Below, one piece after another: positions 5,487 to 32,000 of a DNA stretch of 32,000 nt (position 1 is the first letter of the stretch; each line of letters opens with the position of its first letter). A model generated the notes under the pieces. The model made no database searches. It worked only from the letters and a program-made list of their open reading frames with translations, and was not told where the DNA came from. The position numbers and the translations under genes are program-made. Origin of the DNA: an uncultured Nitrososphaerota archaeon. Its GTDB lineage: Archaea > Korarchaeota > Korarchaeia > Korarchaeales > Korarchaeaceae. The stretch covers positions 18,943 to 50,942 of the forward strand of contig CAYZRF010000014.1 of NCBI GenBank assembly GCA_964480775.1, written 5' to 3'.

Positions 5487-5792
5487 TTCAGCTTATTTTT
5501 TACAGCCCATTGCTAAAAATTTACTATTTCAATTCATAAAGAACTGTCACTTTTTCGACGTTTACTGACCTTAAACAGAACTTCTTAATTTGAACGACTA
5601 TGTAACAGCCTAAGATGGCCCAAACATGAAGTTGTCTGCTTACTATCATCTTAGTCTAAGGACATAAAATCCAGAGGATTCAAGACCAATATATGCAGCC
5701 ACAGGAGCATAATGGGTTTATTATAAAACAGGGGATATGGAAATAATGCCCCATCATGTTATCCTGCTGATAGCCATCCCAACTTATGGATT

Positions 5793-6671: not shown

Positions 6672-6724
6672 ATTTTGATCAAAATTTCCACAGCCAAATT
6701 ATTGGCGGGCGTGTAACTTACCTT

Positions 6725-7354: not shown

Positions 7355-7470
7355 CAGAATAAGCTCATCTCTTAGCGAGATTATTCTCTTTTGTATCAAC
7401 CTCCAGAACGCGGAAAATTTGAAAAAGGTTCAGATGTTGAGATCCAAAGATTAGAGTTTGCAAATCGGAT

Positions 7471-7893: not shown

Positions 7894-7897
7894 GTTA

Positions 7898-8272
7898 TCA
7901 CCTAGACAAAATGGCTTTGGCCCACCTTAGATCGTAAAACCTCCTATCATGGTAGAGCTTGAGAGTCATGTAAACAAACTCTTTTAACGCATTTTCGTCT
8001 CTAATAAACAGAGGTTTTCCCCTTATCACCTCGAAAGCCAAGCTTGGAGAGGCTTCATTTAAGAGCACCATATCGACCTTAATTCCTGGCTCAAGCTCGC
8101 TTGCAAGCTCTATGATTTTTTCAATCATCTCGTCTCTTGACAAGGACTTATCAAGATACACGCCTATATCAATATCACTTAGCTTCGATGCCTTTTCCCT
8201 CGCAGCCGATCCAAAGATGTAGGCAAAGAGCACTTCCTCCTTTGACGATAAAAGCTTGATGACCCTCTCCAT
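7898..8272 (-). CDS. mntA: Minimal nucleotidyltransferase (MNT) antitoxin
   Basis: The GSxxR...DxD motif is present (FGSAAREKASKLSDIDIGV). Length 124 aa. Confidence 0.8.
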   Translation of the reverse strand: MERVIKLLSSKEEVLFAYIFGSAAREKASKLSDIDIGVYLDKSLSRDEMIEKIIELASELEPGIKVDMVLLNEASPSLAFEVIRGKPLFIRDENALKEFVYMTLKLYHDRRFYDLRWAKAILSR

Positions 8273-8303
8273 TTCCCAAATATTCCACAGAACACTTTAA
8301 TAT

Positions 8304-8825
8304 ATGTTACATTTTAAGGGAAAGTTGAATGGTCCTATGAGTATGGAACTTGAATTAGTACCTGTCACCAAAGACGAGGAAGAAAAGATCTCAACGTTCA
8401 TAAGACTTGGAAGGGACTACTTTAAAGATTTGGATTTTGAAGAACGTGAAAGATTTCTTCAGAGCATTCTATCAAGGCTAGGAGAGCCTGACCGCTGGTT
8501 GTTTCTTTTGAAGTATAAAAATGAGTACGTGGGCCTTGGACACGTGAAGATAGATAAGAGCGAGCGGCCGGGCTGGGGTTTTATCCTAGAATTCTATATC
8601 GTACCGTCAAAACGAAGAATGGGACTGGGGCGTGGATTCTTTAGCCTCATCGCAGACATGCTACAGTCTAAAGGGGTTAAGGATATTTGGTTACTTGCAA
8701 CAGAGGCCATACCATTCTGGCGCTCACTTGGGTTTAGATTGACTGGAGAAATAGACAAAGAAACCGGTCAGATGATTCTAACGAAATCGCTGAGATTTTC
8801 CGATAACGCTTCGTTAGAAAGTTAA
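8304..8825 (+). CDS. GNAT-family N-acetyltransferase
   Basis: Acetyl-CoA loop RRMGLGRGFF (R/Q-x-x-G-x-G) with typical length. The start is probably the internal Met (MSMELELV). Confidence 0.75.
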   Translation: MLHFKGKLNGPMSMELELVPVTKDEEEKISTFIRLGRDYFKDLDFEERERFLQSILSRLGEPDRWLFLLKYKNEYVGLGHVKIDKSERPGWGFILEFYIVPSKRRMGLGRGFFSLIADMLQSKGVKDIWLLATEAIPFWRSLGFRLTGEIDKETGQMILTKSLRFSDNASLES

Positions 8826-9683: not shown

Positions 9684-9953
9684 ATGGTTGACTACAAATT
9701 TATATACATTTCATATGTTTACAAACATGTGAAGTCCAAGACAACTGTTTACAGCATAAGGATTCCAGCGGAGTTAAGGAAGCTGATGGATAGCGTTGAC
9801 GTAAATTGGCAGGAAGAAATAAGGAAGACCATAGAACAGCGTCTGAGGAAAGAGATTAGAAAGAAAATGTTGAAGGACGCAAGAGAACTAAGGGAGAGGA
9901 CCAAGAGAATAAGCTCAGCAGAACTGATAAGGGCGGACAGAGATGCGAGATAA
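9684..9953 (+). CDS. vapB: VapB-type antitoxin (probable true start GTG 9729)
   Basis: SIRIPAELRKLMDSVDVNWQEEIRKTIEQRL parallels TIKVDDELKRKMKTVEINWSEYLREAIRQRI of the 4342 gene. It overlaps the downstream PIN gene. Confidence 0.6.
   Translation: MVDYKFIYISYVYKHVKSKTTVYSIRIPAELRKLMDSVDVNWQEEIRKTIEQRLRKEIRKKMLKDARELRERTKRISSAELIRADRDAR
9699..9706 (+). promoter_or_regulatory. TATA box for vapBC-2 (leaderless GTG start at 9729)
   Basis: TTTATATA lies 23-30 nt upstream of the in-frame GTG at 9729 (VKSKTTVYSIRIPAELRK). The longer track ORF would translate the TATA box itself. Confidence 0.45.
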
Positions 9954-10356
9954 AGCCGTACTTGATACCGGCATCATATCAGCGCTGTTCTTCAAGGAGG
10001 AGATATCAGAGGAGGCCGAGAAAATAGTTGAGACGTACGAAGATTTGATAACCGTAGATCTAGCGATTCCAGAGTTAACTAATGTAGCATGGAAGAGAGT
10101 TCAATTCTTTAAAGAGCCTAAGGAAACGATAGAGGTTAACCTCAGGAAAGGAATTGAGTTCATAGTAAGGGCATGTAATGTAATTAGCTCATTCGAAATG
10201 TACGAGAAAGCTTTCGAAATAGCAATTAGGATGGAGATTACAGTGTATGATGCGTTATTCCTTGCTGCCGCAGAAAAAGAAGGTGCTGACTTCATTACTT
10301 CAGATGGCAAACTGGTTGAGAAGTTGAAAGGGCTAGATTTCGTTAAGTTGGTGTAA
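9943..10356 (+). CDS. vapC: PIN-domain toxin VapC
   Basis: Acidic PIN positions AVLDTGI, IPELTN, VYDALFLAAA and FITSD. Length 137 aa. Confidence 0.8.
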   Translation: MRDKAVLDTGIISALFFKEEISEEAEKIVETYEDLITVDLAIPELTNVAWKRVQFFKEPKETIEVNLRKGIEFIVRACNVISSFEMYEKAFEIAIRMEITVYDALFLAAAEKEGADFITSDGKLVEKLKGLDFVKLV

Positions 10357-15263: not shown

Positions 15264-16268
15264 TTAAGAACCTTTTCTCAATTGGAGAAACTTCTTTACG
15301 TTCTTTATTTGTTCTTCATTAAGCTTTTTCATCATTTCTATTATGATTTCATCCTTGCCATAATGGAATTTCTTATGGCACGTTGGGCATACAACAACGA
15401 TGTTGTCAAGGCTATCCAATCCACCATATTCTAAAGGGAGCAGGTGGTGTATCTCGGAATACCTTCCTCCATCGTATCTCTCAAATGTCTGTCCACAAAT
15501 CTGACAGACATCATTGTATTTTTCCTTTAATAGAGCTCTTAACGTCATGTTTCGTTTGTAATACGTTGTTCTTCTCGCAACGCGTTCTGGCACTTTCTCT
15601 CTGAACTCCTTTAACCTCTCCTCAATTATCTTGATCTTAAGTTCTTTTGGAATTCCACCTATCTCTCTTAGAATCTGTTTTCTCCTTTCCTCAACTAATT
15701 CCTGCTCTTCGCTTTCATCTAGAGAGTAGTAAGGTAGTGGTTCACCTACATATTTTACACAAGCCTTGTTGAGAAGTTCTAGCAATTCTTCGGGACATTT
15801 GGTGAGGTACTTGCCCTGTGCGAGTACAAGTCTATTATCGTAGAATAGATCATCATATCTTCTAAGCATTCTCCTGAAATCAATGATAAATTCTTCATCT
15901 CTTAGAACGGCGACTATGGGTATTTCATTACTTAGTTCCTGGAAGTTTATAAGAGAAATAAAAAATCCTTTTGGTTTCTTTCCTGCTTTGACGAATTTGT
16001 TGTACCAGTGAGTATTTGGAGGCATCATAAATTCTTCATAGGATTTTTCGACTATTGATACGCCTACTATCTTAAATTTTTCTTTACTCGTTCTGGATTC
16101 TCTAGTAATATGAATAATTTTATCTCCTTCCCTTACTTTTCTCATGTTATAGTAAATGTCCTTGCCGTCAACACTGCTTTGTGGAGACCATAGGGAATGT
16201 CCTAACCCATATTTTTCATCAATGTCTTCTCCTCTGCCCTTGAAATAGGTCTTTTCAATCCACCACAT
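15264..16268 (-). CDS. HNH endonuclease with N-terminal beta-barrel reader-like domain (COG3183/McrA-like type IV restriction candidate)
   Basis: C-terminal HNH motif CQICGQTF..SEIHHLLPLEYGGLDSLDNIVVVCPTCHKKFH. The N-terminal LWSPQSSVDGKDIYYNMRKVREGDKIIHI resembles EVE/PUA-type modules fused to restriction nucleases. Confidence 0.75.
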   Translation of the reverse strand: MWWIEKTYFKGRGEDIDEKYGLGHSLWSPQSSVDGKDIYYNMRKVREGDKIIHITRESRTSKEKFKIVGVSIVEKSYEEFMMPPNTHWYNKFVKAGKKPKGFFISLINFQELSNEIPIVAVLRDEEFIIDFRRMLRRYDDLFYDNRLVLAQGKYLTKCPEELLELLNKACVKYVGEPLPYYSLDESEEQELVEERRKQILREIGGIPKELKIKIIEERLKEFREKVPERVARRTTYYKRNMTLRALLKEKYNDVCQICGQTFERYDGGRYSEIHHLLPLEYGGLDSLDNIVVVCPTCHKKFHYGKDEIIIEMMKKLNEEQIKNVKKFLQLRKGS

Positions 16269-16405: not shown

Positions 16406-16756
16406 TTGATGGATCTAGAAATCACTTTTGAGGAAGCTAAAAGACTTGTGGCCAAGTTTAGGGATGAAAGGGAATGGTTGAAATATCACACGCCTAAGAA
16501 TTTGGCTGAATCCATAGTAATAGAGACGGCTGAGCTTTTAGAGCTTTTTCAATGGAAAACGGAGGAGGAATGTTTAGAGTACGGAAAAAGTGCAGAAGGT
16601 AGGAAAAGAATAGCTGAAGAGCTTGCAGATGTGGTGATATATGCACTTTCCTTAGCTGATGTACTGGAAATAGATTTAGGTCTCGCTGTCTTGGAGAAAC
16701 TTGAAGAAGATAAGAAAAAGTATCCTACAGAGAAGTTTAGGGGGAAATATGCCTAG
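16406..16756 (+). CDS. MazG-type (all-alpha) nucleoside-triphosphate pyrophosphohydrolase
   Basis: FRDEREWLKYHTPKNLAESIVIETAELLELFQWK and ELADVVIYALSLADVLEIDL give the EExxE/ExxD metal-binding helix pattern of small MazG/dCTPase-like enzymes. The ATG is at 16409. Confidence 0.8.
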   Translation: MMDLEITFEEAKRLVAKFRDEREWLKYHTPKNLAESIVIETAELLELFQWKTEEECLEYGKSAEGRKRIAEELADVVIYALSLADVLEIDLGLAVLEKLEEDKKKYPTEKFRGKYA

Positions 16757-17801
16757 CTTTAACCTCAGAGGGCAACATATGCTTGTGGATTGTTCCTTCA
16801 TGAATTGATGCAATTACTTGCCTAGCTAGTGCCTTATCCATGCCTCCAAATTCTTCAAAGTTGTTTGAGTCTGTTTCAAATTTTACAGATGTGCCCTCTA
16901 ACAAAGCCAAGACGTTCTCAACGAAGTAAACATCATACTCATTGAAGTTCATCTTATTCTCCTCTTCGTCAATTATCCAAACCCCAATATCTGGATATCT
17001 CCTCACTTTAGAAGCGTGATTTATACCTAAAACTGGAACGACTTCAATATTCTCGTTTCTTAAGGCCCAAAGTTTTGCAAAGCCATCACATTGCCAGTAA
17101 AACATTTCTGAGCTCGCACCGGTAAGCCACGCAAACTGTTTAGGATTTACACCTTTAAATGAGACTTCAAACCGTATCTTTATGTCTTTAAGATCACGAA
17201 GCGTATTCAAATTTATCTCAGAGCCAGGTTTTCCTATTGCGATGCCGTTTGTTTGAATAATAATCTCAAGATTTGTCAAAGTTTTTACGAAATATTCGAC
17301 CTCTTGCTCGACAACTCTTTGACATACTGAGAGTAGCTTTTCGCGATTATTTAGAGTTTTAAGAACCTCGTTGAGATGCTGCCATTGTAAAGTAGGCTCA
17401 TTTCCGGTAATTCTAAGACTTTTAAAATCTTTCCATCTTTTTCTGATCCAATCATCGTTTCTAAGAGTTTTCAATCTGCAAAATAGATCGGCTATGACTT
17501 GCTCCGGAGTTTTGCGTATGCTACGGCCTTTTTTTATGTTATAGGCCCAACAAAACTTACAATTCAAGTTACACCCCTTGAAATCTAAGACTAGCTCTGG
17601 ATAATTCGTCCTGAACCTAGTTCCGCAAAGAGCTACGCACCTGTGTTCTTTATGAACCTCACAACTCCAACAGGGGTCGCGTCCCCATCCACCCCAGCAC
17701 TTTCTACTATGCCACCGATTATCCCACTGCATATCTGAGTATATGCCTATTGTCATGAAATTGCTCACCGCGAATGATTTGCAATATCCAAATATTTTCA
17801 A
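16737..17801 (-). CDS. Radical-SAM enzyme with extra N-terminal Cys cluster (TYW1/Taw1-like layout)
   Basis: CX3CX2C motif CNLNCKFCW, preceded by CWGGWGRDPCWSCEVHKEHRC. Also ITGNEPTLQ and IIQTNG. The start may be the internal MTIG at 17756. Confidence 0.75.
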   Translation of the reverse strand: MKIFGYCKSFAVSNFMTIGIYSDMQWDNRWHSRKCWGGWGRDPCWSCEVHKEHRCVALCGTRFRTNYPELVLDFKGCNLNCKFCWAYNIKKGRSIRKTPEQVIADLFCRLKTLRNDDWIRKRWKDFKSLRITGNEPTLQWQHLNEVLKTLNNREKLLSVCQRVVEQEVEYFVKTLTNLEIIIQTNGIAIGKPGSEINLNTLRDLKDIKIRFEVSFKGVNPKQFAWLTGASSEMFYWQCDGFAKLWALRNENIEVVPVLGINHASKVRRYPDIGVWIIDEEENKMNFNEYDVYFVENVLALLEGTSVKFETDSNNFEEFGGMDKALARQVIASIHEGTIHKHMLPSEVKARHISP

Positions 17802-17818: not shown

Positions 17819-18709
17819 TTGAGAGATCAGATGGCAGATATATTTCAGAGAATTGAGATTAGAGAGGATTCTGATTCTTTTTTAGCAAGGATAATTATTG
17901 CAGGTGAATGGGAGGGCAATTTGGAAAAAGCAAAAGAACTCTTTGAAAGAGTCTATGAAACATGGCCAAGTAGTCACAAAGTCAAATTTCTCATTACGTG
18001 TGGTGGTTATGTTCAGTTTGACTGGCCCTCATCAATATCAAGAGAGGATATTGGAGACAACATAAATCCAAGAAAAGAAATTGTTGATCTATTGGTTAAG
18101 GAAGCTGAAAAATGCGCCCAATATGTTTTAGATGATAGTGTAGCTGAGAAATACAGTGAAATTACTGATTACATTACGCTAGGTATAGATTCATTCAAGG
18201 AAAAGATATCAACGACCCAGAATTACATAAGCCAACTTCATATTGAGCTGGTGTTTCTGATTGATCTAAAAAACAACAAGTTCTACTGGACGGGGAAATC
18301 TTACCCAACGCCTGGTCAACAAAGAGGGTTAGTTAGAATTTCCGATCTAAAAACGCATTTCTTCAACCTAGATGTCGGAAAGGTCATGATTCTGGGATGT
18401 CATGACTTAACGATTTTCAATCCCAGATCAAAGAATGCAAGAGGGTGGAAAGAAAGGGTAAACAGAGAATTTAGGGAGTTGGCTATGGAGGAAAAGCCAG
18501 AAATCGTATTACAGCATCCTCATACAACTGATTCTGTACTAACTTGGGCTGCAGCTTGGAAAGGCTTAGTGAGAGAAGTTCCATCGGTAAGGGTATATGC
18601 TAGCGCAGGAAAATACTACAGGCCCGAGGGTGTGCGTTCCAGACTAAATGACGTCCTTGAGAAGACGGAACGTGGCAACGCTTTGGATTTCATTGTTTGG
18701 ATGAAATGA
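17819..18709 (+). CDS. Hypothetical protein (296 aa), divergent partner of the radical-SAM gene
   Basis: Long ORF with protein-like composition and no overlap with other coding. I recognised no confident family; local strings are ILGCHDLTIFNP and LQHPHTTD. Confidence 0.5.
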   Translation: MRDQMADIFQRIEIREDSDSFLARIIIAGEWEGNLEKAKELFERVYETWPSSHKVKFLITCGGYVQFDWPSSISREDIGDNINPRKEIVDLLVKEAEKCAQYVLDDSVAEKYSEITDYITLGIDSFKEKISTTQNYISQLHIELVFLIDLKNNKFYWTGKSYPTPGQQRGLVRISDLKTHFFNLDVGKVMILGCHDLTIFNPRSKNARGWKERVNREFRELAMEEKPEIVLQHPHTTDSVLTWAAAWKGLVREVPSVRVYASAGKYYRPEGVRSRLNDVLEKTERGNALDFIVWMK

Positions 18710-18891: not shown

Positions 18892-20055
18892 TTGGGGGTG
18901 GGATTCCTGACAGAATTGGGCGCAATAATAAATGTAGCATCTTTCCGCCGAAATCCTCATCTAAAAACTCTATTTCAAAGAGGTCTTTGGGGCTTTTCTG
19001 AGCGGTATAGAAAAAGATGGAAGTTATTGAGCAAAGGAACAAGAGTTCTCTTTTACGGGGATAAGGGAATTAGAATAGCGGGCATGGTAGAAAGTACGGT
19101 AGAAAATCGTGAACCTGTTGATGAATGGGTTAAGGATCCAATGGGCTACCCCTACCAAGCTATCTTCAGCTTACTCAACAAAAATGTAGAGAGTGTGAAA
19201 CCAATATGGAGAGTCGAGTTAGTGGAGAAGTTTGGCATTCCATTGGCCAAACAAGGGTTTAGAGGGACTGGATTAGTGTTGTTTGGTGATGTCAACAAAG
19301 AGGGTATTACATATCCAATTGAGAAATTTAATGAAATATGGAGCGAATTCTTGAGAAGGAATGACCTTAAGCCCTCTGACAGAGTTGAAGAGTTAAAGGA
19401 GGTTCACCCTCCTTCAAAAATAGAAGAATATGTGAGTCACGCAAGAGAACTGTTACGAAAATATCCTGATATGAGCGAAGCGACCACTATTTCCGCCCTA
19501 ATAGACCCTCTATTGGAGCTGCTAGGATGGAATACGAGGAATCCGGATGAGGTTCAAAGAGAATTCAAAGTTAGGGGGCGCAAGGGGTTTGAACATGTGG
19601 ATATGGCTCTCATGATCGATGGAAAACCTCACGTCTTCATAGAAGTAAAATCTTCAGGTAGTCTGCTTGAAGAAGGGGATGAAATACAAGTAACAAGCTA
19701 TGCCTTCAATAGTGGAGTAGATTGGTGTGTTCTAACGAATGGTCGTGAGATAAGAGTTTATGACATCACGGGAGGAAAAAGCCTACGAGAAAAATTGTTG
19801 TTCACAGCAAGCATAGATGAGTACATAGAAAATTTTGACAAGATAATGCTTCTTTCAAAAGAAAGCGTTAAGCTAGGAAGATTGCGTGAGTGGAGTCTGA
19901 GAAGATTGACTTTAGAAAAAATTATCAACTATATTGAGCAGAAGGAACAAGAAATCGTCGAGGAACTTCTTAGATCTGATGGGAGGTTAAGTAAAGAGGC
20001 TGTCAGAGGGGTCCTTAGGACAATCATCGACCATTGTAGGAAAATAGAAATGTAG
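18892..20055 (+). CDS. EVE/PUA-like N-domain fused to an HsdR-N/Mrr-type PD-(D/E)xK nuclease domain
   Basis: The C-terminal half has LIDPLLELLGW..GFEHVDMALMIDGKPHVFIEVKSSG..QVTSYAF..WCVLTNGREIRVYD, the type I R-subunit N-terminal nuclease pattern. The N-terminal LWGFSERYRKRWKLLSKGTRVLFYGD resembles the McrB-like N-domain. The start codon is non-ATG (TTG/GTG) and uncertain. Confidence 0.7.
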   Translation: MGVGFLTELGAIINVASFRRNPHLKTLFQRGLWGFSERYRKRWKLLSKGTRVLFYGDKGIRIAGMVESTVENREPVDEWVKDPMGYPYQAIFSLLNKNVESVKPIWRVELVEKFGIPLAKQGFRGTGLVLFGDVNKEGITYPIEKFNEIWSEFLRRNDLKPSDRVEELKEVHPPSKIEEYVSHARELLRKYPDMSEATTISALIDPLLELLGWNTRNPDEVQREFKVRGRKGFEHVDMALMIDGKPHVFIEVKSSGSLLEEGDEIQVTSYAFNSGVDWCVLTNGREIRVYDITGGKSLREKLLFTASIDEYIENFDKIMLLSKESVKLGRLREWSLRRLTLEKIINYIEQKEQEIVEELLRSDGRLSKEAVRGVLRTIIDHCRKIEM

Positions 20056-20711: not shown

Positions 20712-20806
20712 GTGCTCTTTGAGATAGGCTTATTTTGAAATAATGGTTGATTAAATCGTTCTAACCTACTGAGGGATTTTATTTTTTATTAACACTATGA
20801 AAATAG

Positions 20807-21793
20807 ATGAGCTTATCTCACAGAAACTACAAATGGATAAAAAATAAGCTGGATAATCTTCAGAAAATTTCAGAGGAATTAGTAGAAATCTGTAGAAAGG
20901 TTAGATGTCCCGGAGTTAATGATCCTGCCAAGTGCAATCCAGCTCACGAATGGACTGCTATAAAGCTCCTTTTCATTGCTGGATACGTTCCGACCTATAC
21001 CTCAATCATAGCAAATCGATATGTGGCTAAAGGAAATCCCATGTACTACATAGACTTATTCGCCGGCTGTGGGCTTAACAGGATAGAGGAAGACTTCACC
21101 TTTCCAGGATCTCCTTTGATAGCAGCAGCTTTCGCAAGAAGTCCTTTCACTAAGATAATTGCCGTAGAGAAGAGGAGAGATTTAGTGAAGGCCTTAAGAA
21201 TGCGGCTAAATAAGGTGCTTCCCTCAGGAGATTATGTAGTGTATAGAGGAGATTGCAATGAGATTGTGGAAAGAATAGAGGAAAGGTTGAGTAGGAAGAA
21301 GGGCCATTATTTGATGTTTGTTGATCCCTTTGGATTCGAGATCAATTGGAAAACTATGGAAGCACTCCTAAAGTATCCTGGAGATGTTATAGTACTTTTT
21401 CAAGCTAGAGAAGCCATTAGGAATCTCAACAAGGCTGAAAAAAGCAGGTTGAAAGCCTTCTTTGGTGAAGAGGAGCTAAATTTTGAAAACGAGGAGGAGA
21501 TGCTAAGGCATTATTCAGATAAGCTGAAAAGAGTTGGAACTATAGGAGTTAGAAGGGAGATAGTCATTCCAGTAAAGATAGCTCTAATGAAAGGTATTCA
21601 TTACTACCTGATCTTTGCCACCAGGAGGACGAGAGAGGGAAGCCCATGGATAAGATGCATCCACAGCCTAAAGGAGAAGTTGGAAAAAGCTCGACCTCAC
21701 TACGTTAAGGTTGCAATCGGGGCACTTAAGGGAAATGTAAAGGATCTTGAGGAGTTCTTTGAAGAAGATGCAAATCTCACAAAATACCTTTAG
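20807..21793 (+). CDS. TcmP-like (three-Cys-motif partner protein) methyltransferase-fold protein
   Basis: HEWTAIKLLFIAGYVPTYTSII..YYIDLFAGCGLN matches the remembered TcmP pattern WT..KL....Y...Yt.I....y.D.FAG.G. MFVDPFGFE is a DPPY-like motif IV as in RlmJ-type enzymes. Confidence 0.6.
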   Translation: MSLSHRNYKWIKNKLDNLQKISEELVEICRKVRCPGVNDPAKCNPAHEWTAIKLLFIAGYVPTYTSIIANRYVAKGNPMYYIDLFAGCGLNRIEEDFTFPGSPLIAAAFARSPFTKIIAVEKRRDLVKALRMRLNKVLPSGDYVVYRGDCNEIVERIEERLSRKKGHYLMFVDPFGFEINWKTMEALLKYPGDVIVLFQAREAIRNLNKAEKSRLKAFFGEEELNFENEEEMLRHYSDKLKRVGTIGVRREIVIPVKIALMKGIHYYLIFATRRTREGSPWIRCIHSLKEKLEKARPHYVKVAIGALKGNVKDLEEFFEEDANLTKYL

Positions 21794-22773
21794 GGAATAC
21801 AGTTACACCTGACTCCTTTCCAGTCTGGAGCTTTTCCAGGATTATAAAGAAGTTCTAGTTTCTCCATCTGCATCCATAGGTTCAAGGTCTCCTTACACAA
21901 AGCCAAATCACCTTTGAAGTCATGAGCTCTGATCTCCTTCAGAACATGTTGATACATATCTTTCCTTAACTCAGCGTTCATTTTAAGTCCCCATCCTGTC
22001 TTCTCTCCTCCTCTCAAGTAATCAACCCACTTCCTGTCCTTTGCGTACTTTATCGTCTTCCATAAGCCTCTTAACGTTCCAAGAGTTATCCTTGTAGGAT
22101 TCAGCTCATATCCTTCGAAAATCTCAGATACTAAAGAGGAATACTCTTCCCTCCATCCTGGGACAGGGATCATGGGATCTAGCCTAAGTCTGAGTTCAAA
22201 TCCTGCTTCTTGGACGAGTTTTGCTGCTTTCATCCTTTCTTCAGGAGGAGGCGTCCCTCTCTCATACAGCTTTGCTGGTAGAGAAGCATTCAGGGAGAAG
22301 CTAACCACTAGGCTTCTCTTGTCTCCTTTCCACTCAAATAAGGGACCGATGTGCTTAACTCCTCCCTTAGTAACGAAAAGGAATTTGTGTCCAGGATGCC
22401 TTGAGATAGATTCTGAGATTACATCCAGAAGAATTCTTGTCCACTCTATGATCGCTAAACTATCAGAAAGTTCTCCGGTGTTAAGCATTACTTTCAGACT
22501 TTTGGAGTCAGCCCAAGTTAAGAAATCTTCAAGCTCGTTTCTAAGCCCTTCAACATTCTTTATTCTAGGACTCTTATTCCCGAAGAAGGTACCTTGCAAA
22601 TAACAATAGGAACAACCGAATGGGCATCCGTTAGCCCATTTTAGTTCGAAGAAATGTGGACAAACTATATCCTCTGGGGTTTTGGAGAAGTAAACGATAT
22701 ATCTTGATTTCATCCATTTAAGTGGAACGAGCATTGGCTTAAGTTCAATTTCATCCTTCTGATTCATGATCAC
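21790..22773 (-). CDS. Spore-photoproduct-lyase-family radical-SAM enzyme (COG1533-like)
   Basis: ANGCPFGCSYCYLQGT matches SPL GCxxxCxYCYLQ. NTGELSDSLAI matches SPL GTGEFTDSLAL. ITLGTLR is also present. Length 327 aa. Confidence 0.75.
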   Translation of the reverse strand: MIMNQKDEIELKPMLVPLKWMKSRYIVYFSKTPEDIVCPHFFELKWANGCPFGCSYCYLQGTFFGNKSPRIKNVEGLRNELEDFLTWADSKSLKVMLNTGELSDSLAIIEWTRILLDVISESISRHPGHKFLFVTKGGVKHIGPLFEWKGDKRSLVVSFSLNASLPAKLYERGTPPPEERMKAAKLVQEAGFELRLRLDPMIPVPGWREEYSSLVSEIFEGYELNPTRITLGTLRGLWKTIKYAKDRKWVDYLRGGEKTGWGLKMNAELRKDMYQHVLKEIRAHDFKGDLALCKETLNLWMQMEKLELLYNPGKAPDWKGVRCNCIP

Positions 22774-22868
22774 ATTACCTCTCTTCTGCTTAAATATTAA
22801 GTCTATCTGGGAAAAGTTTTTCGATCTTTTTCTTCAAAAAAGATGCCTAACAGATTTAGGTAAGTTAG

Positions 22869-23324: not shown

Positions 23325-24209
23325 TTGAGTTTGGCTGAGAAGCTTTCTAGATTTAGTATTTGTTACAAAATGTCGCACATTATTTATGTCAAGAGTATAG
23401 GGCTACCGGATGATTTCAACAGAATAAGGAGAGATCCTCTATCAGCGATGTTCTATTTTACTGTCTTTTGTCACGAAAGAGCGGGAACTAATCCAAATTT
23501 TCAGAAATATCATCGTGTTTCAATAAGAAGAGCTCTGATTAAGAGTAAAGAACACGTAGATGGCACAAGCTTTTCATCCGCTTTAAAAAGTAAGGAATTC
23601 CCAGAAAAAGTCTGGAAAGAATTTAGATCCCTTGTAAAACAGGCAGGATCCAAACCAAATGCTAAGATAACGATAGGGCCTGTGTACTTTATTCTTAAGG
23701 AAATGCAAGGAGAGAAAGAACCAAACATAATAAGACTCTTAGAGAAGAAGGGAATCGTTGGTGCACACGAGTTTCTTAGGAAGATCCAAGGAATTGGAGA
23801 TAAGGTGAGCGCTCTTATTTTAAGAGATTTTCAATCATTTCTAAGTCTATGGCAAGTTCCGAAAGAAGAAAGGTGGAGGCTTCAGCCAGTAGATAGATGG
23901 GTTAGAAGGTTTTCAGAATTATGTTGGCCCAACGAATTCTCGGCCTACAATAAAAGGGCCAAAGGTAGTCAAATGGCGTTGCTAATTGTAGAGTGCTGCG
24001 AGAATGAGAAAATTAACCCAATATCATTTAATCAGGGTGCATGGTTTGTTGGTAACCGTTACACCGAGCTGTGCAAATTTCATGGGATAAGTGAGGAGGA
24101 GAGTCTTAATTTGGAAGAGTGTATAATGAAATTTAACGAAGAATGGGTAGCATCTGCCATTAAAAAGTTCGGAGAATTGAAGGAAAAAGGTGAAATCTTT
24201 ACTTTATAA
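23325..24209 (+). CDS. HhH-GPD-superfamily DNA glycosylase-like protein
   Basis: FLRKIQGIGDKVSALILRDF is a helix-hairpin-helix with Lys at the EndoIII K120-like position. LQPVDRWVRRF follows about 30 aa later, resembling VDTHVxR with the catalytic Asp. The start may be ATG 23370. Confidence 0.55.
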   Translation: MSLAEKLSRFSICYKMSHIIYVKSIGLPDDFNRIRRDPLSAMFYFTVFCHERAGTNPNFQKYHRVSIRRALIKSKEHVDGTSFSSALKSKEFPEKVWKEFRSLVKQAGSKPNAKITIGPVYFILKEMQGEKEPNIIRLLEKKGIVGAHEFLRKIQGIGDKVSALILRDFQSFLSLWQVPKEERWRLQPVDRWVRRFSELCWPNEFSAYNKRAKGSQMALLIVECCENEKINPISFNQGAWFVGNRYTELCKFHGISEEESLNLEECIMKFNEEWVASAIKKFGELKEKGEIFTL

Positions 24210-25960: not shown

Positions 25961-27574
25961 TTAGTGGATACGTCTAATTTTACGTATTATGGCTTTTGTT
26001 TTTTGTATTTTAGCCAGATCATCTTTTGGTAATATAGAATGTTCAAGTAGAACTTTATCGACAATCTCGCTAACTTTATCGAAAGCGCGGTTTCTTAGAA
26101 GATTATTCAAGTTTTCCCATAAGCAGGCTAACTCCGATACAATGATATCTGATGATGGAGACACAACATTCAATACTAAAATTCTGGAAGAATCGCTTGG
26201 TTCAAGTTTTAAGCAGCCACCACCATATGGACGACCTTCGATTTCGGAGGAAAGCTGGCTTACCGAAGAGTAAAAAGAGACAATAAGCGCTTTTACTTCC
26301 TTTTCTGCTAGGTGTCTTTTTAGGAAAACCTGATGAATAGTATTTGTACTTGTTGCTCTCGCCGTATCTAAAACCAGCTTAGGAGAGTTGTGATTTATAT
26401 AAGTCAAAAACATATCTGGAACAGTTATGTCAAGAGAGAACCACCTCTTCCTTCTATTTGAATGATATCTCTTGTTAATACCTCTTGACAAGCCAATCTT
26501 CAAATATTCTTTCAAACCATCTGAATCAATATGCGTGTCTGGATGAATGTTGAGAATATAACATTTTGTCCAATTAGTTAGATCTCTTCTCCAATCTTCC
26601 TTGGAATATACAAGTCCTGTGAGAGAAGCATTTCTAGAAACACATGGATACAGATATTTTTTCTCTATTCCAAATTCTTCTCGTTCTTTCTCTGATAATA
26701 CAAAGAAATTATTGCAACCAGTCACTACACCGATACGAGTCTCAGCAAAATTTCTTAGAGGCAAAAATTCTTTGATTCTTCTTAATATAGCAAAAACATG
26801 TTTATCGATAGCTATATGATGCCATTTCTTATTGTTCTCTCCTATAATCGTTTTATTTCTTCCGTCGGTTTCTACAACATGCAGCGAAAGAATAGCTGGT
26901 CCCTTGCATTTTTGAGAAGTAATGACCAATATAGGCGAAATTTTCGTTCCTTCGAACAAATAGTCAGAGAAAAGATAGATGTCTATATTTCGGTATTCGT
27001 CAGCTAAGAGTGTCCTAATTTTCTCTCCATAAGAAGAGAATAAGAACTCTCTAGGAAGAATGAATCCCATAGTACCATTCTCTTCCAATAGAAGGTGACA
27101 TTTTAACATAAAATAAGCCCAAGATGATGCTTTAAGACTTATATAAGCGGTTTTTCCAAACTGTTCAATTAGCAAGTTTTGCCATGTTCTTTTCAACCTA
27201 CCTAATAGGTGATGCCTTATGAATGGTGGATTTGCTAATATCATATTAAAAGAACCGAGTCTATCTGGTTGGATTCTTATGAAGTCCTCTTTAATAAAGA
27301 GACATTTCTTAGGATCAATTATTCTTGTAATCCGCTTTCTGGCCTTCTCTAGCGCTCTTTTGGAGATATCTATACATACTACGTTGGTGTGTTCGCTTAT
27401 TTTACTGGCTCTAAGATAAGCACATACAAGAGTTCCGTTACCAACCGCAGGATCTAATACTCGGCCATACGGATGTTTATCGTTTGAATGATGAGCCTTT
27501 AAAGCTTTTGATACAAGCATTTGCGCTAAGGAAGCGGGTGTCTCAAATCTTCCATGAAGTTTGTTTAAGTTCAT
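25961..27574 (-). CDS. N6-adenine DNA methyltransferase (gamma class, Eco57I/TaqI-like with C-terminal target-recognition domain); DrmMI-like
   Basis: Motif I VLDPAVGNGTL, motif IV ILANPPFIRHH, N-terminal FETPASLAQMLV. The start overlaps the upstream stop (ATGA at 27571-27574). Confidence 0.85.
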   Translation of the reverse strand: MNLNKLHGRFETPASLAQMLVSKALKAHHSNDKHPYGRVLDPAVGNGTLVCAYLRASKISEHTNVVCIDISKRALEKARKRITRIIDPKKCLFIKEDFIRIQPDRLGSFNMILANPPFIRHHLLGRLKRTWQNLLIEQFGKTAYISLKASSWAYFMLKCHLLLEENGTMGFILPREFLFSSYGEKIRTLLADEYRNIDIYLFSDYLFEGTKISPILVITSQKCKGPAILSLHVVETDGRNKTIIGENNKKWHHIAIDKHVFAILRRIKEFLPLRNFAETRIGVVTGCNNFFVLSEKEREEFGIEKKYLYPCVSRNASLTGLVYSKEDWRRDLTNWTKCYILNIHPDTHIDSDGLKEYLKIGLSRGINKRYHSNRRKRWFSLDITVPDMFLTYINHNSPKLVLDTARATSTNTIHQVFLKRHLAEKEVKALIVSFYSSVSQLSSEIEGRPYGGGCLKLEPSDSSRILVLNVVSPSSDIIVSELACLWENLNNLLRNRAFDKVSEIVDKVLLEHSILPKDDLAKIQKTKAIIRKIRRIH

Positions 27575-30120
27575 TTTTGTTCCTCTTCTAAAAGGGGTAC
27601 TGCTATAGCAAAGTGTCTTTCGAAATCAGAGATTAATTTATAGACTTCTGCTTTGTTTCTGTGTATAGATAAAACCTCTATGTTTTCATAAAGACCTCCA
27701 AAAGTTAGATTTGGAGAACCTACAATAGCTACTCTGTCATCAACTATGTAAATTTTTGCGTGAATGAATTTTTCACTTAAGAATCTAACTTCTAGCAATC
27801 CAGGATTTGCATTGATCAATTGTAAAAGAGCAGAACGAAGTTCTCTGCTAAGCTTCTTAGACCTAGAGATCAATAAACGCACCCTTACATCGCGACGTAA
27901 TGCATCCCTTGTTATGTCCTTTAGGATCTCAGTGTTCAAAAAAGGAGTACAGATTCTGACTATTTGGTTCGCGGAACTAATGTTTTTATGGACAATCTCT
28001 CCCACACTAGTTTTCATTTTACTTTCAACTTCTTTCTCATCAAGGATTGCTTCTAAGAAATTTTCAGCCAGCCTTCTACTAAGAAGGAATACTTGATCAT
28101 ACGGCTGCATGTCGCAGCCCCTTTCTAGTCTTATACAAGCAACGCAACCGTCCCAGCAAAACGGTATTTCATGGTCAATAAGAGTAATAATCTCTACCCC
28201 AATGGGAGGATATGATTCTCCTCTTGACTCTCTATACATCTTTTCTTTCTCTTGACGTAAGATCTTGTCTTTGTCGATGAGTAATCGAACAAATTCTAAA
28301 GGAAGATTTATCCCAACTAAAGATGAAAATGCCATATTTAGCTCCTTGAGACGTTTTCTAAATGCAATTTGAGCCTCAAGGATTTTTCTTATGGAAGGCA
28401 TAGTTTCCATTGTTTTTACATGATCCGCCCAAAGAGACAAGCAAGTATTTTCCCCGTGTTTGTCCTTGAGCCTCCGTAGCATCTCAGTGAAAAGTCTTTT
28501 CATAGACATTTTACCCTCCTCTCTTTCTTCTTCAAAAGACTCAGCTACTCCCATCCCCCCATCAGAATCTTCAGTTATTAAGAGAGAAACTTCATCTTCT
28601 CTCAGCGTTACATATTCCGCTGTTCCCCTATCTCTTTTGAGAGAGGTGAAGGTTGAAATTAGATCTAATTCAGTAACTCCATATCGTTTGCATAATACAA
28701 GTTTAAGTAAATGAGAAAGAGTGTGAAGCAAGACATCTATACAAAAATCGATGAATTTTCCTTCTGTAATCATATCTTTTTTTATAAATCCTTCAGGATG
28801 ATTAAATAACTGAATGAGTTGGTTAAGATCTTCTTTTATACTAGGTGAAATACTTATTGCGGCGGTGGGATCTGCTAACCCTAGTAATAGAAGAGCGATT
28901 CTATCCAAGTCATATCTAGGGCCATATCTAAAACGAGGCCGCTCATAAATGTAATATTTTAACAGCAAGGGCTTTAGCACATCTCTTCGGGAAAACAAAA
29001 GGCCTGTTATCAATCTACGTACTTCGTTTTTATTGAAGATTAATTCAAGACCATGGCCTTCAAGAATCCTATATCCAGGACCTTCGTCTAGGAAGAATGG
29101 CCTAGAATAAGTTGTACCAAAGAGCGTTTTTAACTCCAATTGAACACCATAAACCCCTCTTACGAGGGTGGTGTTATCTCTTAGAACAAGAGTAACATTC
29201 TTTGTGGATTCTTTCTTTCCAATTTCACCAGAAGGAGATACCAATGTTCTTATCAGACTTCTTGATTTGTATAGCCGATATATAGAATCCATGGGTTTTG
29301 GAAAATTTAATCCTCCCATATTAAAATCACATATACTATTTGAATCTTTCCATGCTCGTTTTGCCCAATTTGACCCCAGAATTATCAAATCCCCCGTTAC
29401 ATGCACGCCCCCGCCAAAGGTATTCCTCTCTCTGTATTCTGAAGGAATGTTTGGATCAAATAACATAACTGACAAAATTCTTCCTTCTTGAGATATTCCT
29501 TTTACCTTAGCAGATAGGGCTCTTAAAAAGATAGTAAAACCAGCAAATTCATTTTCTTTTTCTCCTAGCTCTCTTGCAGCAACAGTAAACAGATCGTCTA
29601 TTAGATATACTTTCATAGCTCCTGGTAGGAAAATCCTTGTAAAACTCCCTAACATAGGATGAGGTAACTCTATCGAAAATAGAAAGGCACCATTGACTTG
29701 CCATGAATCAAAATAATTGCATAACAGAGACCCTTTAGAACCAAACCTACCTATTGAGGCATTGATTTTATATAGCTCGCTCTCTATTTGAGAATTGAAG
29801 GAAATCCCTTCTCTTGGATTTCTAAAAGGACTTATAATCAAACCTTGTTTGAATTTTCCTGGAACAAAGAAGAATCCTTGTTGATGACTTTGAACTCGTT
29901 GAGGCAAAAAACCTAAAGGAGGAAAAGAACTCAGAACAGAAGTAATACTCTTGATTTTACTAGCTAGAGGGTTTCCTCTTTCCAAAAACGAGACCTCTAT
30001 CTGAGGAATGTTTTTATCTGTTAAAGCAGGATCAGGAGCTCTGGATGCAGGAATTAGGTGCTTTAAAATAATAAATAAGTTCAAATATTTTCTTTTTCTG
30101 CTTCTCGAGACGCTGCTCAT
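27571..30120 (-). CDS. DUF1998 (MrfA-type Zn-binding, DrmB-like) fused to a C-terminal PLD/HKD nuclease domain (DrmC-like)
   Basis: LLHTLSHLLK and FCWDGCVACIRLERGC..LLSRRLAENFL form the DUF1998 pattern (about 28113-28735). FIHAKIYIVDDRVAIVGSPNLT is the HxK(x4)D..GSxN motif (about 27700-27775). Confidence 0.75.
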   Translation of the reverse strand: MSSVSRSRKRKYLNLFIILKHLIPASRAPDPALTDKNIPQIEVSFLERGNPLASKIKSITSVLSSFPPLGFLPQRVQSHQQGFFFVPGKFKQGLIISPFRNPREGISFNSQIESELYKINASIGRFGSKGSLLCNYFDSWQVNGAFLFSIELPHPMLGSFTRIFLPGAMKVYLIDDLFTVAARELGEKENEFAGFTIFLRALSAKVKGISQEGRILSVMLFDPNIPSEYRERNTFGGGVHVTGDLIILGSNWAKRAWKDSNSICDFNMGGLNFPKPMDSIYRLYKSRSLIRTLVSPSGEIGKKESTKNVTLVLRDNTTLVRGVYGVQLELKTLFGTTYSRPFFLDEGPGYRILEGHGLELIFNKNEVRRLITGLLFSRRDVLKPLLLKYYIYERPRFRYGPRYDLDRIALLLLGLADPTAAISISPSIKEDLNQLIQLFNHPEGFIKKDMITEGKFIDFCIDVLLHTLSHLLKLVLCKRYGVTELDLISTFTSLKRDRGTAEYVTLREDEVSLLITEDSDGGMGVAESFEEEREEGKMSMKRLFTEMLRRLKDKHGENTCLSLWADHVKTMETMPSIRKILEAQIAFRKRLKELNMAFSSLVGINLPLEFVRLLIDKDKILRQEKEKMYRESRGESYPPIGVEIITLIDHEIPFCWDGCVACIRLERGCDMQPYDQVFLLSRRLAENFLEAILDEKEVESKMKTSVGEIVHKNISSANQIVRICTPFLNTEILKDITRDALRRDVRVRLLISRSKKLSRELRSALLQLINANPGLLEVRFLSEKFIHAKIYIVDDRVAIVGSPNLTFGGLYENIEVLSIHRNKAEVYKLISDFERHFAIAVPLLEEEQK

Positions 30121-32000
30121 TTATCCACCTCCCCATTCTTTGAGTAATTCGGCTAAAGCTAAAACACCTGATTTTCTAGAAGCATCACAGAAAATTTGGA
30201 TTAGATCTCTCATTTTATCTGAAAATTCTTCACATTGCTTTATATCAAATCTATTTAACTCGTCTAAGAAAACCTTAAACGGTTGTTTAATTTCATCCAA
30301 GATGTCCCTGATCTCTTTGACCGATTTCTTATCTTCGCTTGAAGTTTCATGAACAAAAGTTACTATGCCAAGCCCAACTTTCGGAATAGTGCGGTTTCTT
30401 CCAATTCCAAGCAGATATTTGTTCATTTCTCCTACAATTATTCCAATGAGGTTATTTAGATAATCTGTTATATTACAAATCTCCGACAGATCTTCTGGTA
30501 AATCAGGGTATAAGTCTTCTCTAGCTGCTGCCGTGATACGAATTAAGTGCGATCTTGCTTTTATGCATTTAGAAGAGAGTTCTTCGGCTGTTTGACTAAC
30601 GTCACTTAATTGAATGTTTAGATTTTCTAGAGTTCTCTCAAGTAGGTGTTCGTATTTTTCATTAGATAAGATCTCTATGAGATCTCTTGATGCGCTGGCG
30701 AGTTCATTTAATTTGCGAGGCATTTGAGCTAAGAAATCTCCAGCGATTCCGGGGCGAACAAGATCAATTCGCCTAGGTCTGGATATTATCGGAAGAACCT
30801 CCTCTTCAAATTTATTTATAGCATTATCTAGATCTCGAATAAAATCATCTAAGTAGGAGTCAACTTCCTGAGGGTTGATATCTAGAATTTTACTAACTTT
30901 AACGAGGATCTGAGGCTTTCTATCTACGATGTTTGCTCTTAATTCTTCAATTTCCTCGACAATTGACCTTATACGGTCCAAAATGCTTCTGAAAGATCTC
31001 CTTTTTCCTATCAATCTCGCACATGTAAATATTCCTTCTGATGCTAACAGATCAAGCGATGCAAAAATTACGGACCATCTTTTGACTCTTGCATTCTTAC
31101 TTGCAACAAAAGGTGTCCGGTGCTTTGTGAGAAATTCTTCAAAGTGTTTTCCATACGCATACCATAAGTCATTTGGATTATTGGTAAGAACGAGAATTCC
31201 CATGGCTACTCTGAGAGATCTCTTGCTTCTTCCAGCCCTTCCAACTCTTTGTTTATAGTTTTCTCCAGCCATTGGTGGACGATATTGCACTACCACTGAG
31301 ATATCTCCTATGTCTATTCCTAATTCTAAAGTAGATGTAGAAATAGCACCTATAGATTCATTTTTTAGCTTCTCTTCAACTTTGTAACGATAAATTTTAT
31401 CTAGATCAGCGTTATGAAAGAGTAATGATTCTGCTCCTTGATCTCGTAGCTTTTGTACTATTTTACGATCTATAATTTTTTCATAAATGGAATATCCTTC
31501 GTGGAGATACGAATTTCTATTTCCAAGTATGGATATTGTCTTTTTAGCCTCTTCCATCGAAAAGCTAGAGATTTCTCTCATAACAAGAGGAATAGCTAAT
31601 GGAAGCCATGAGTATGATGCTTGGAACAAATTTTCTTCTATTGAGTATCTCGATTTGCAAAGTATTGCTGGAGAAAGATGCCTCTCCTGTTCTCCTAAGT
31701 CATGTCTCTTAAATATAGTATTGGTAACGAGATTCCAGTATCTTTGAGTTCCTAACACGCTATCTACAAAACAAAGAAATTTTCTTTGAGTAGAGAGGGC
31801 CCAGACTGACAAACAAAGTAATACCTGCTGAAGTAACCAATCTCCACGATAATTTGGGTTTGGAGCTAAAAGAAGGTGTAATACTATTCTTGTGCCCTCT
31901 ATCTGATCATCTAGCTGATAATAGGGACGGAAATAAGTATTACCAGCTATTTTGGAGGACAAGAGGATGTTAACAAATTTAATAGGATCTCCCATGGTAG
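30121..32000 (-). CDS. Superfamily-2 helicase, C-terminal part (DrmA-like); 5' end lies outside the window
   Basis: The RecA2 domain shows RKFLCFVDS, TSTLELGIDIGD and motif VI YKQRVGRAGR (about 31230-31255). No Walker A or DEAH motif appears in the 624 aa shown, and the frame is open to the window edge. The stop abuts the start of the next gene (30120/30121). Confidence 0.75.
   Translation of the reverse strand, partial: TMGDPIKFVNILLSSKIAGNTYFRPYYQLDDQIEGTRIVLHLLLAPNPNYRGDWLLQQVLLCLSVWALSTQRKFLCFVDSVLGTQRYWNLVTNTIFKRHDLGEQERHLSPAILCKSRYSIEENLFQASYSWLPLAIPLVMREISSFSMEEAKKTISILGNRNSYLHEGYSIYEKIIDRKIVQKLRDQGAESLLFHNADLDKIYRYKVEEKLKNESIGAISTSTLELGIDIGDISVVVQYRPPMAGENYKQRVGRAGRSKRSLRVAMGILVLTNNPNDLWYAYGKHFEEFLTKHRTPFVASKNARVKRWSVIFASLDLLASEGIFTCARLIGKRRSFRSILDRIRSIVEEIEELRANIVDRKPQILVKVSKILDINPQEVDSYLDDFIRDLDNAINKFEEEVLPIISRPRRIDLVRPGIAGDFLAQMPRKLNELASASRDLIEILSNEKYEHLLERTLENLNIQLSDVSQTAEELSSKCIKARSHLIRITAAAREDLYPDLPEDLSEICNITDYLNNLIGIIVGEMNKYLLGIGRNRTIPKVGLGIVTFVHETSSEDKKSVKEIRDILDEIKQPFKVFLDELNRFDIKQCEEFSDKMRDLIQIFCDASRKSGVLALAELLKEWGGG

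Follow-up and report, generated by a model that had tools for sequence, protein, structure and literature searches.

What a methyltransferase-fold protein of the TcmP family does beside a radical S-adenosylmethionine (SAM) protein resembling spore photoproduct lyase (SPL) is the question raised by a convergent gene pair in a 32,000-nucleotide stretch of contig CAYZRF010000014.1 from an uncultured archaeon, hereafter the window. We give about an even chance to the reading that the two products are subunits of one mobile SAM/radical-SAM DNA-modifying module, in which the SPL-like protein would be the catalyst and TcmP its obligate methyltransferase-fold partner. Complex formation, the DNA substrate, the chemistry, and the biological role are all things that we infer, from both family memberships, the adjacency and repeated fusion of the two genes, the linkage of the family to ParB and HsdS, the loss of the SPL repair cysteine, the retention of SAM-binding motifs in TcmP, and the variable restriction-modification and mobile-element contexts. 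New here is the observation of a radical-SAM component plugged into ParB and HsdS DNA-targeting modules. The features of the pair are as follows.

20807-21793, forward strand: TcmP-like gene, 328 aa, ATG start
21044-21073, forward strand: TcmP motif I, the SAM-binding glycine loop YYIDLFAGCG (residues 80-89), which aligns with YLDTHAGAG of RlmJ
21317-21334, forward strand: TcmP motif-IV-like loop FVDPFG (residues 171-176), the FvDP of which aligns with liDPpY of RlmJ
21790-21793, both strands: TTAG, overlapping stop codons of the convergent pair, read from the sequence
21790-22773, reverse strand: SPL-like radical-SAM gene, 327 aa, GTG start at 22773
21799-21807, reverse strand: C-terminal CNC (C323, N324, C325) of the SPL-like protein, in a C-terminal coil modelled at a predicted local distance difference test (pLDDT) score of ~89
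22603-22626, reverse strand: CPFGCSYC, the CX3CX2C radical-SAM [4Fe-4S] motif (C50, C54, C57), read from the sequence, which aligns with CMGHCHYCY of SPL
22774-22815, reverse strand: sequence preceding the SPL-like gene; AT-rich TATA-like box TTAATATTTAAG and GAGAGGT Shine-Dalgarno-like element, both found by eye

When the sequence was re-read, both open reading frames (ORFs), all the motifs quoted in the original prediction, and the TTAG overlap were found where that prediction had placed them. The TcmP-like protein contains HEWTAIKLL...YYIDLFAGCG and FVDPFG, and the SPL-like protein contains GCPFGCSYCYLQGT, NTGELSDSLA, and RITLGTLRG. The TAG stop codon (21791-21793, forward strand) and the TAA stop codon (complement of 21790-21792) lie inside TTAG and have two bases in common. 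An alternative ATG at 22767, two codons downstream of the GTG, yields a protein of 325 aa that is identical to P0001 of the public collection (proteins and loci of which are denoted P and L below), and this ATG is more likely than the GTG at 22773 to be the start of the SPL-like gene. An AT-rich stretch, TTTATTTTTTATTAA, lies ahead of the TcmP start at approximately 20777-20791 on the forward strand and resembles the box of the SPL-like gene, which suggests that each convergent gene has its own putative promoter.

The 328-aa protein was predicted to be TcmP-like, and it is a member of that family: it matches the TIGR04474 (TcmP) model with 103.1 bits against a cut-off of 53 (E 2.3e-29), with residues 48-276 aligned over profile positions 1-250 of 263. 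Among the PADLOC models, which come without curated cut-offs, PDC-M41A scores 71.6 and 66.2 bits and PDC-M30A 34.5 bits. The AlphaFold model (pLDDT 89.5), compared with the PDB by Foldseek, has 2oo3 of the DUF519/RlmJ family as its best match (E 5.9e-7), and the best 50 of its 189 matches at E ≤ 1e-3 are all class-I SAM-dependent methyltransferases or proteins described as putative or methyltransferase-like. On this model, TcmP has a class-I SAM-methyltransferase fold nearest to that of RlmJ/DUF519, extended by a long additional N-terminal helix (residues 1-31). Profile searches likewise detected RlmJ and 2oo3 as the only solved relatives, at E 0.005-0.05, and HMMER aligned YIDLFAGxG with YLDTHAGAG, GSPLIA with GSPLIA, and FVDP with LIDPPY. 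RlmJ/DUF519 (a 23S rRNA m6A2030 methyltransferase; PDB 6qdx, 2oo3) is the closest fold and shares with TcmP an N-terminal helix with a conserved lysine, a motif I of the form Y-[IL]-D-x-x-A-G-x-G, GSPLIA, and the Asp-Pro of motif IV; the similarity is nevertheless weak (E 0.005, template-modelling (TM) scores of 0.44-0.52), TcmP has DP-x where RlmJ has DPPY, and, unlike RlmJ/DUF519, TcmP is not a housekeeping protein and is always paired with a three-Cys radical-SAM-type protein. We rejected membership of RlmJ/DUF519 itself, given a profile match of only E 0.005, the DP followed by a variable residue, and those TM scores.

SAM binding by TcmP is predicted to be likely because motif I, the acidic residue E121 after beta-2, and D173-P174 are conserved. 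Y81, D83, G87, and G89 of motif I are invariant in the TcmP alignment (A2), as are D173 and P174; among the 24 TcmPs that are partnered with SPL-like genes, D83, G87, G89, and E121 are kept in 21-22, and D173 and P174 in 22-23. The TcmP sequences diverge much faster than those of their SPL-like partners, with mean pairwise identities of 25% and 45%, respectively.

The second protein had been called a genuine enzyme of the SPL family carrying a CX3CX2C motif. The family and the motif stand: PF20903 (SPL) matches residues 45-219 with 58.9 bits against a cut-off of 27, PF04055 (Radical_SAM) matches with 29.5 bits, exactly at its cut-off, and the best PDB match by Foldseek of the AlphaFold model (pLDDT 92.4) is SPL from G. 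thermodenitrificans (4fhc; E 1.4e-13, TM 0.64), seven orders of magnitude ahead of the next matches, which are generic radical-SAM enzymes including PFL-AE and LipA. The word "genuine" does not, and we rejected a true spore photoproduct lyase: the SplB equivalog model TIGR04070 gives 69.6 bits against a cut-off of 400 (TIGR03886, 39.5 against 437.55), and the catalytic cysteine is replaced by an invariant glutamate. The position of the SPL hydrogen donor (C141 in B. subtilis, C140 in G. thermodenitrificans) corresponds to E101; all 120 homologues have Glu here, inside an invariant NxGExxDS motif resembling the ordinary radical-SAM GGE motif. Alignment with B. velezensis SplB by hhalign (99.2%) is confined to the core, residues 44-223 against SplB 85-257, at ~30% identity.

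The radical-SAM cluster motif is kept. The cysteines C50, C54, and C57 are present in 118 of the 120 homologues, the other two having gaps; Y56, inside the motif, is Tyr in 107/118 and Trp in the rest, and Y58, directly after it, is Tyr in 110/118 and Phe in the rest. In CSYCYLQ these two residues align with the tyrosines of SPL CHYCYLQ that flank the third cluster cysteine and belong to the radical relay. The protein also has conserved cysteines beyond the motif, C38 and C293 in 118/120 homologues and C323/C325 in 117/120 (gaps in the remainder), and these four likely constitute a putative second metal site. An invariant W261-G262 occupies the tip of a predicted beta-hairpin (strands 257-259 and 262-264). 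SplB (TIGR04070; 4fhc), which acts on DNA, and the SPL-like protein thus have in common the TIM-barrel core, CxxxCxYCYLQ, and [FY]ExGTxxxxxR; unlike SplB, the SPL-like protein has unrelated N- and C-terminal regions and four extra cysteines, and its gene is partnered with TcmP instead of splA and found in mobile or defence contexts of non-spore-formers. No splA-like neighbour is present in the window, in contrast to the B. velezensis splB locus, and the window, which encodes TFIIB, is archaeal and not the splA-splB setting of a spore-former.

The homologue pool of the SPL-like protein comprised 839 word-indexed sequences, and phmmer found 1444 cluster representatives at E ≤ 1e-3 and 102 at E ≤ 1e-30. 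Loci were taken as the best 80 of 132 confirmed matches, with one genome per species, and all ORFs in them, which are our own calls in the fetched loci, were scanned with hidden Markov models (HMMs) built from both homologue sets, the TcmP HMM being derived from the homologues of the window protein. With the family boundary set by judgement at >180 bits, 36 loci including the window pass, and loci L050-L080 and an Omnitrophota clade are excluded. The TcmP gene is adjacent or fused to the SPL-like gene in 26 of these 36 loci, or 26 of 31 if only those with sufficient flanking sequence are counted, in the following layouts.

Convergent with a gap of -5 to +13 nt, as in the window: 8 loci (the window and 7 others)
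Same strand, TcmP upstream: 8 loci
Same strand, TcmP downstream: 7 loci
Single-ORF fusion (L016, L019, L026): 3 loci
Flank too short to judge: 5 loci
No detectable TcmP despite ample flank: 5 loci

In the fusions, TcmP is N-terminal and the SPL-like domain C-terminal, both in these three loci and in 4 of the 150 best cluster representatives of the SPL-like family that were surveyed for fusions. The viral loci from IMG/VR have TcmP adjacent in 4 of 4 cases, and 3 of the 4 carry two tandem SPL-like paralogues. Hosts include Methanomethylicota, Thermococci, Thermoplasmata, Asgard archaea, Bathyarchaeota, Chloroflexota, Zixibacteria, Planctomycetota, Desulfobacterota, and Bacillota. The closest relatives, 85% and 82% identical, are each found on a longest Logan contig of 2473 bp, presumably one and the same contig. 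An all-against-all BLAST of the neighbours in the 36 loci identified no third conserved gene. With TcmP at 26/36 loci and contexts that vary, the SPL-like gene is not a stand-alone housekeeping gene in a fixed position, the circumstance that the original prediction had named as speaking against it.

Several variants of the pair were seen alongside these layouts. Two convergent SPL-like paralogues occupy L001 676-2708; the viral loci L081-L083 (e.g., L081 6794-10072) carry SPL-like paralogues in tandem, with a convergent TcmP gene after them; and in L091 (1649-5001) TcmP lies between an SPL-like gene and a second radical-SAM gene that is weakly DUF5131-like. Such variants with two radical-SAM genes suggest hetero-oligomeric or two-step chemistry. 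In P0258, P0260, P0294, and P0311 the SPL-like domain is split by inserts of ~290-360 aa, and in P0252 it follows an N-terminal LAGLIDADG-like region of ~440 aa; these inserts are probably inteins or homing endonucleases, and intein-containing radical-SAM proteins are known in the Rv2578c family. The low-scoring "SPL" loci L050-L080 encode other COG1533-type families of ~270-330 aa that are neither SplB nor the SPL-like family, and the proteins of the Omnitrophota clade, which are 440-480 aa long and lack TcmP, were left out of the counts.

The strongest indication of a substrate comes from domains joined to the SPL-like domain. In the survey of 150 representatives, 29 of which are at least 450 aa long, 14 combine the SPL-like domain with a ParB/Noc/Spo0J N-domain and a helix-turn-helix, at either end; these fusions keep the GERRxRA box, match ParB_N and SPL in Pfam, and have Noc (7ng0, E 1.9e-44) as their best PDB match. 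In P0242, a complete type-I specificity subunit (HsdS) is joined to an SPL-like domain (Pfam Methylase_S and SPL; PDB 3okg, E 1e-33), and this HsdS-SPL fusion is found on 19 contigs in the collection. TcmP is the next gene in both fusion cases that we examined, one per class (L096, E 1.6e-36; L098, E 1.6e-28). The L096 operon (1461-8519; also in L097) comprises RadC, an HSDR_N_2+N6_Mtase+Eco57I protein (627 aa), a 312-aa protein of no assigned family, the HsdS-SPL-like fusion (802 aa), and TcmP (365 aa), flanked by AbiEii and MNT/HEPN genes, and is a restriction-modification-type operon whose specificity subunit carries a radical-SAM domain. Three-gene ParB-SPL-TcmP operons are present in L012 and in the viral L084. 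On the viral contigs (n=4), the ORFs flanking the pair encode capsid and cement proteins, two N6_N4 methyltransferases, ParB_N, Nmad3, and ASCH, and across loci the commonest immediate neighbours of the pair are DNA methyltransferases, ResIII, Type ISP enzymes, and integrases. For the DNA base modification or repair-like module originally proposed, the ParB and HsdS fusions provide strong new support as far as DNA as the substrate is concerned; the modification of its bases we still infer. A further fusion, P0332, carries a ~200-aa N-terminal domain with a CHCxxxxxCHR-type motif reminiscent of DUF488, for which it is a candidate.

The original prediction also held that the usual DUF5131 partner of TcmP has been replaced by an SPL-type enzyme. 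Pairs of TcmP and DUF5131 (Gp37/Gp68, PF07505) are known from TIGR04474, the "three-Cys-motif partner protein", and as the PADLOC candidates PDC-M30 and PDC-M41. The partners of seven hand-picked TcmP relatives, a small and non-random sample, are listed here.

P0206, P0160, and P0145: partner matching PF07505 (DUF5131)
P0128: partner matching both PF07505 and Radical_SAM
P0126: partner a Radical_SAM protein
P0125: partner an SPL protein
P0129: located between an SPL protein and a second radical-SAM protein

The swap itself is borne out when P0206, P0160, P0145, and P0128 are compared with the window, but it is not peculiar to the window: it is widespread, and it takes place between families that the sequence comparisons indicate to be homologous. 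When the SPL-like family was aligned with the DUF5131 partners by hhalign (92%, E 5e-7), the three-Cys motif and the LTK strand were aligned, and DUF5131 and SPL are both placed in Megacluster-5 of RadicalSAM.org (PMC9477430). In the TcmP+DUF5131 pairs and in the window pair alike, TcmP adjoins a protein with an N-terminal three-Cys motif, in co-directional or convergent layouts with overlapping stop codons. The partner in the window differs in its length of ~325 aa, its canonical CX3CX2C, four extra invariant cysteines, and CNC, whereas the DUF5131 partners are mostly ~250 aa long with Cx6Cx2C. The DUF5131 partners score 328-362 bits on PDC-M30B and PDC-M41B, with TcmP matching the A components; the SPL-like protein of the window, unlike them, matches neither PF07505 nor the PADLOC B models, nor any other PADLOC model, and is related to them by remote homology only. 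The window pair is a variant of the PDC-M30/M41 candidates that lies outside the PADLOC B models, and its kind is known computationally only. The description of TIGR04474 may already mention radical-SAM partners. The literature that we searched contained no paper on what TcmP, DUF5131, the SPL-like family, or the pair does, and nothing on tests of PDC-M30/M41 or on SPL-like enzymes in defence, in agreement with the earlier statement that the function of the pair is previously undescribed.

How such a module would work can be sketched from its parts. The two proteins would form a complex on DNA, where the [4Fe-4S] cluster at the CX3CX2C motif of the SPL-like subunit would cleave SAM to generate a 5'-deoxyadenosyl radical. 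In the manner of spore photoproduct lyase, the radical would abstract a hydrogen atom from a flipped nucleotide of DNA inside the barrel, and TcmP would bind a second SAM and present or pre-methylate the target base. The product would be a non-canonical base that serves as a self-mark or an anti-restriction mark in conflicts akin to restriction-modification. Experimentally, this chemistry has a single precedent in gp53 of phage M6, an SPL-like radical-SAM enzyme encoded by a mobile genome that modifies a base on DNA, rearranging glycinyl-thymine (PMC8989533); its partner is a pyridoxal-phosphate decarboxylase in the 5-hydroxymethyldeoxyuridine pathway, whereas that of the window protein is TcmP, and tblastn against phage records detected no sequence similarity between the two radical-SAM proteins. 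A precedent for the targeting is the phage thymine dioxygenase that requires ParB-like activators on double-stranded DNA (PMC13229309). In this system, 5mYOX176/ParB176, and in ParB-linked phage DNA methyltransferases, a ParB module is combined with a post-replicative modifier of bases in double-stranded DNA, a coupling that resembles the ParB-SPL fusions and the ParB-SPL-TcmP operons; 5mYOX176 is an Fe(II)/2-oxoglutarate dioxygenase, whereas the SPL-like family is radical SAM, and the window copy lacks ParB.

A bolder form of the same proposal, which we put forward tentatively and would ourselves sooner doubt than accept, is that the pair represents a new class of two-component radical-SAM DNA modifier that writes a previously unknown sequence-specific mark, e.g., a radical C-methylation or a carbon-centred adduct on a flipped base. 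Targeting would be interchangeable, by TcmP alone, ParB, or HsdS, and the mark would fill the role of the "M" component in archaeal, bacterial, and viral systems resembling restriction-modification, with the TcmP-DUF5131 group performing related chemistry.

A number of results weigh against a DNA-modifying module composed of these two subunits. No member of the TcmP, DUF5131, or SPL-like families has a known activity, product, or phenotype. In motif IV of TcmP, DP is followed by a variable residue in place of the aromatic one found in canonical DPPY/F, so that TcmP may be a binder of SAM or a base and not a methylating enzyme; RlmJ, the closest characterised relative, acts on rRNA and not on DNA. 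The SPL-like gene occurs without a detectable TcmP at five loci with ample flank. The distances of the two partners co-vary only weakly in a mirror-tree comparison (Mantel r 0.23, a value reached by 27 of 5000 permutations), and we set this co-evolution signal aside as evidence of interaction. The five neighbours of the pair in the window and the second radical-SAM gene have no homologue in any of the fetched loci. No full-length family member was found in cultured phages or plasmids: tblastn of the window SPL-like protein against 50,697 phage records gave two weak, unannotated matches on faecal phage contigs, searches of phages and plasmids otherwise gave partial matches to true splB, a Geobacter-type TcmP had no phage match, and a fold search of BFVD yielded only viral radical-SAM proteins of a generic kind, none of the top matches being annotated as Gp37/Gp68. 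Finally, the window copy has neither a ParB nor an HsdS module, and DNA targeting would be carried over to it through family membership and its 41% identity to the HsdS fusion.

Four other explanations were weighed against the DNA-modifying module. The pair could be an anti-virus or anti-plasmid effector, a restriction-like variant of PDC-M30/M41 in which the radical-SAM subunit, aimed by TcmP, ParB, or HsdS, damages or irreversibly alters invading DNA. Its TcmP matches PDC-M41A and PDC-M30A just as DUF5131 partners match PDC-M41B and PDC-M30B, the window has the character of a defence island, restriction-modification and abortive-infection genes are near the pair in other loci, and the pair would have to supply its own effector because no nuclease is conserved with it. 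Yet the PDC systems are untested candidates, the pair is also carried by viral contigs beside DNA methyltransferases and ParB, and an uncontrolled DNA damager would need an immunity function, of which none is conserved; the L096 operon, moreover, already encodes a nuclease-methyltransferase enzyme, so that a modification role fits it better. We regard an effector as unlikely, though it is the likeliest of the four. Modification of rRNA or tRNA in place of DNA is rather improbable. In that explanation, TcmP, whose nearest relatives by profile and fold are RlmJ and DUF519, would act like RlmJ (N6-adenine methylation of 23S rRNA), and the radical-SAM subunit like RlmN/Cfr or MiaB-type RNA modifiers; most characterised radical-SAM modifiers of nucleic acids do act on RNA. 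The fusion of the SPL-like domain to ParB/Noc and to HsdS is difficult to reconcile with an RNA target, as are the patchy spread over archaeal and bacterial phyla with no conserved synteny, contexts made up mostly of restriction-modification and mobile-element genes, and a closest structure that is the DNA enzyme SPL.

That closest structure is also what invites a DNA-repair lyase that reverses a lesion, spore-photoproduct-like or other, with TcmP as an accessory: SPL is the best match by both sequence and structure, and the CxYCYLQ tyrosines of its radical relay are retained. We consider this very unlikely, given the TIGR04070 score of 69.6 against 400 bits, the replacement of the hydrogen-donor Cys by Glu in all 120 homologues, N- and C-terminal thirds that cannot be aligned with SplB, and the absence of the splA-like neighbour found in the Bacillus locus; the gene is sporadic, located in an island and on viral contigs, and the HsdS fusion implies that a sequence is recognised, and not a lesion. 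Slightly less probable still than repair is a viperin-like enzyme that makes a modified free nucleotide or small-molecule product. Radical-SAM defence enzymes acting on free nucleotides exist among the prokaryotic viperins, and such an activity has been proposed for Ophion OpnA (bioRxiv 10.1101/2025.09.30.679545), but similarity to viperin is limited to the radical-SAM core, the fusions carry DNA-binding or DNA-specificity modules and not nucleotide kinases or transferases, and SPL-type and RlmJ-type folds both act on polymers.

If the pair is a DNA-modifying module, its relatives are of interest beyond this locus. The radical-SAM activities established on DNA are two, spore photoproduct repair and the isomerase gp53 of phage M6 (PMC8989533), and the SPL-like family comprises at least ~100 clusters at 50% identity (E ≤ 1e-30) distributed over many archaeal and bacterial phyla and viral contigs. 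Because so few such activities are known and because these proteins are wired to DNA-recognition modules and restriction-modification operons, SPL-like members of the family would be a natural hunting ground for new DNA base chemistry and for sequence-targeted DNA-modifying tools, and a place to seek new epigenetic marks that current sequencing pipelines misread. The pair also opens an experimental route to the function of TcmP and DUF5131, two large "dark" families already on the list of defence candidates. For biochemistry, it would be convenient to start from the copies of thermophilic archaea such as that of the window or from the natural single-chain fusions, and L096 is a good experimental entry.

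The surroundings of the pair in the window agree with its earlier placement inside a defence island. A TFIIB gene (239-1294) identifies the window as archaeal. The GC content is ~46% over the housekeeping genes at 1-4 kb (TFIIB, an AAA ATPase, and ketol-acid reductoisomerase) and 35-41% from ~13 kb to the end, a drop that is consistent with a horizontally acquired island. The low-GC part contains the genes of an HNH protein, a second radical-SAM protein, an HSDR_N protein, the pair, an Eco57I-type N6 methyltransferase, a PLD-nuclease protein, and a helicase, and toxin genes lie upstream at the island edge (7.4-10.4 kb; HepT/MNT at 7471-8272 and PIN at 9943-10356). Given the low GC content and these restriction, HNH, PLD, helicase, and toxin genes, the region can fairly be described as a "defence or mobile island". 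The neighbouring features are as follows.

15264-16268, reverse strand: HNH protein beside the second radical-SAM gene, with weak IscB-like similarity
16737-17801, reverse strand: second radical-SAM gene, 354 aa, PF04055 38 bits, with weak similarity to viperin, NrdG, and pVip; unrelated to the pair
17819-18709, forward strand: 296-aa ORF, divergent from the second radical-SAM gene, with no family match
18892-20055, forward strand: 387-aa protein, ~750 bp upstream of TcmP; PF04313 46.9 bits, PADLOC REase_MTase_IIG 56.6 bits
23325-24209, forward strand: "glycosylase-like" ORF, 294 aa, in which only the motifs GIGDKVSALILRD and PVDRWVRR recall HhH-GPD enzymes
25961-31995, reverse strand: Eco57I/N6 DNA methyltransferase (537 aa), 849-aa protein, and helicase truncated where the window ends, all in one operon

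The glycosylase-like neighbour had been linked to the pair, and this link was not upheld: the ORF at 23325-24209 has no match in Pfam, NCBIfam, PADLOC, PHROG, or the PDB sequences, and it is not found beside the pair in other loci. The protein at 18892-20055 has an HSDR_N/type-IIG-like PD-(D/E)XK nuclease domain in its C-terminal half and an N-terminal domain of ~190 aa with no assigned family, and its role may be that of a restriction partner or of a modified-DNA reader; no homologue of it was found beside the pair in other loci. In the 849-aa protein, the first ~700 residues have no Pfam match at E ≤ 0.01, and the C-terminal PLD nuclease domain has weak similarity to DrmC and DpdK; the operon at 25961-31995 is DISARM-, Dpd-, or type-ISP-like. 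The second radical-SAM gene, the ORF divergent from it, and the adjacent HNH gene may form another small defence module.

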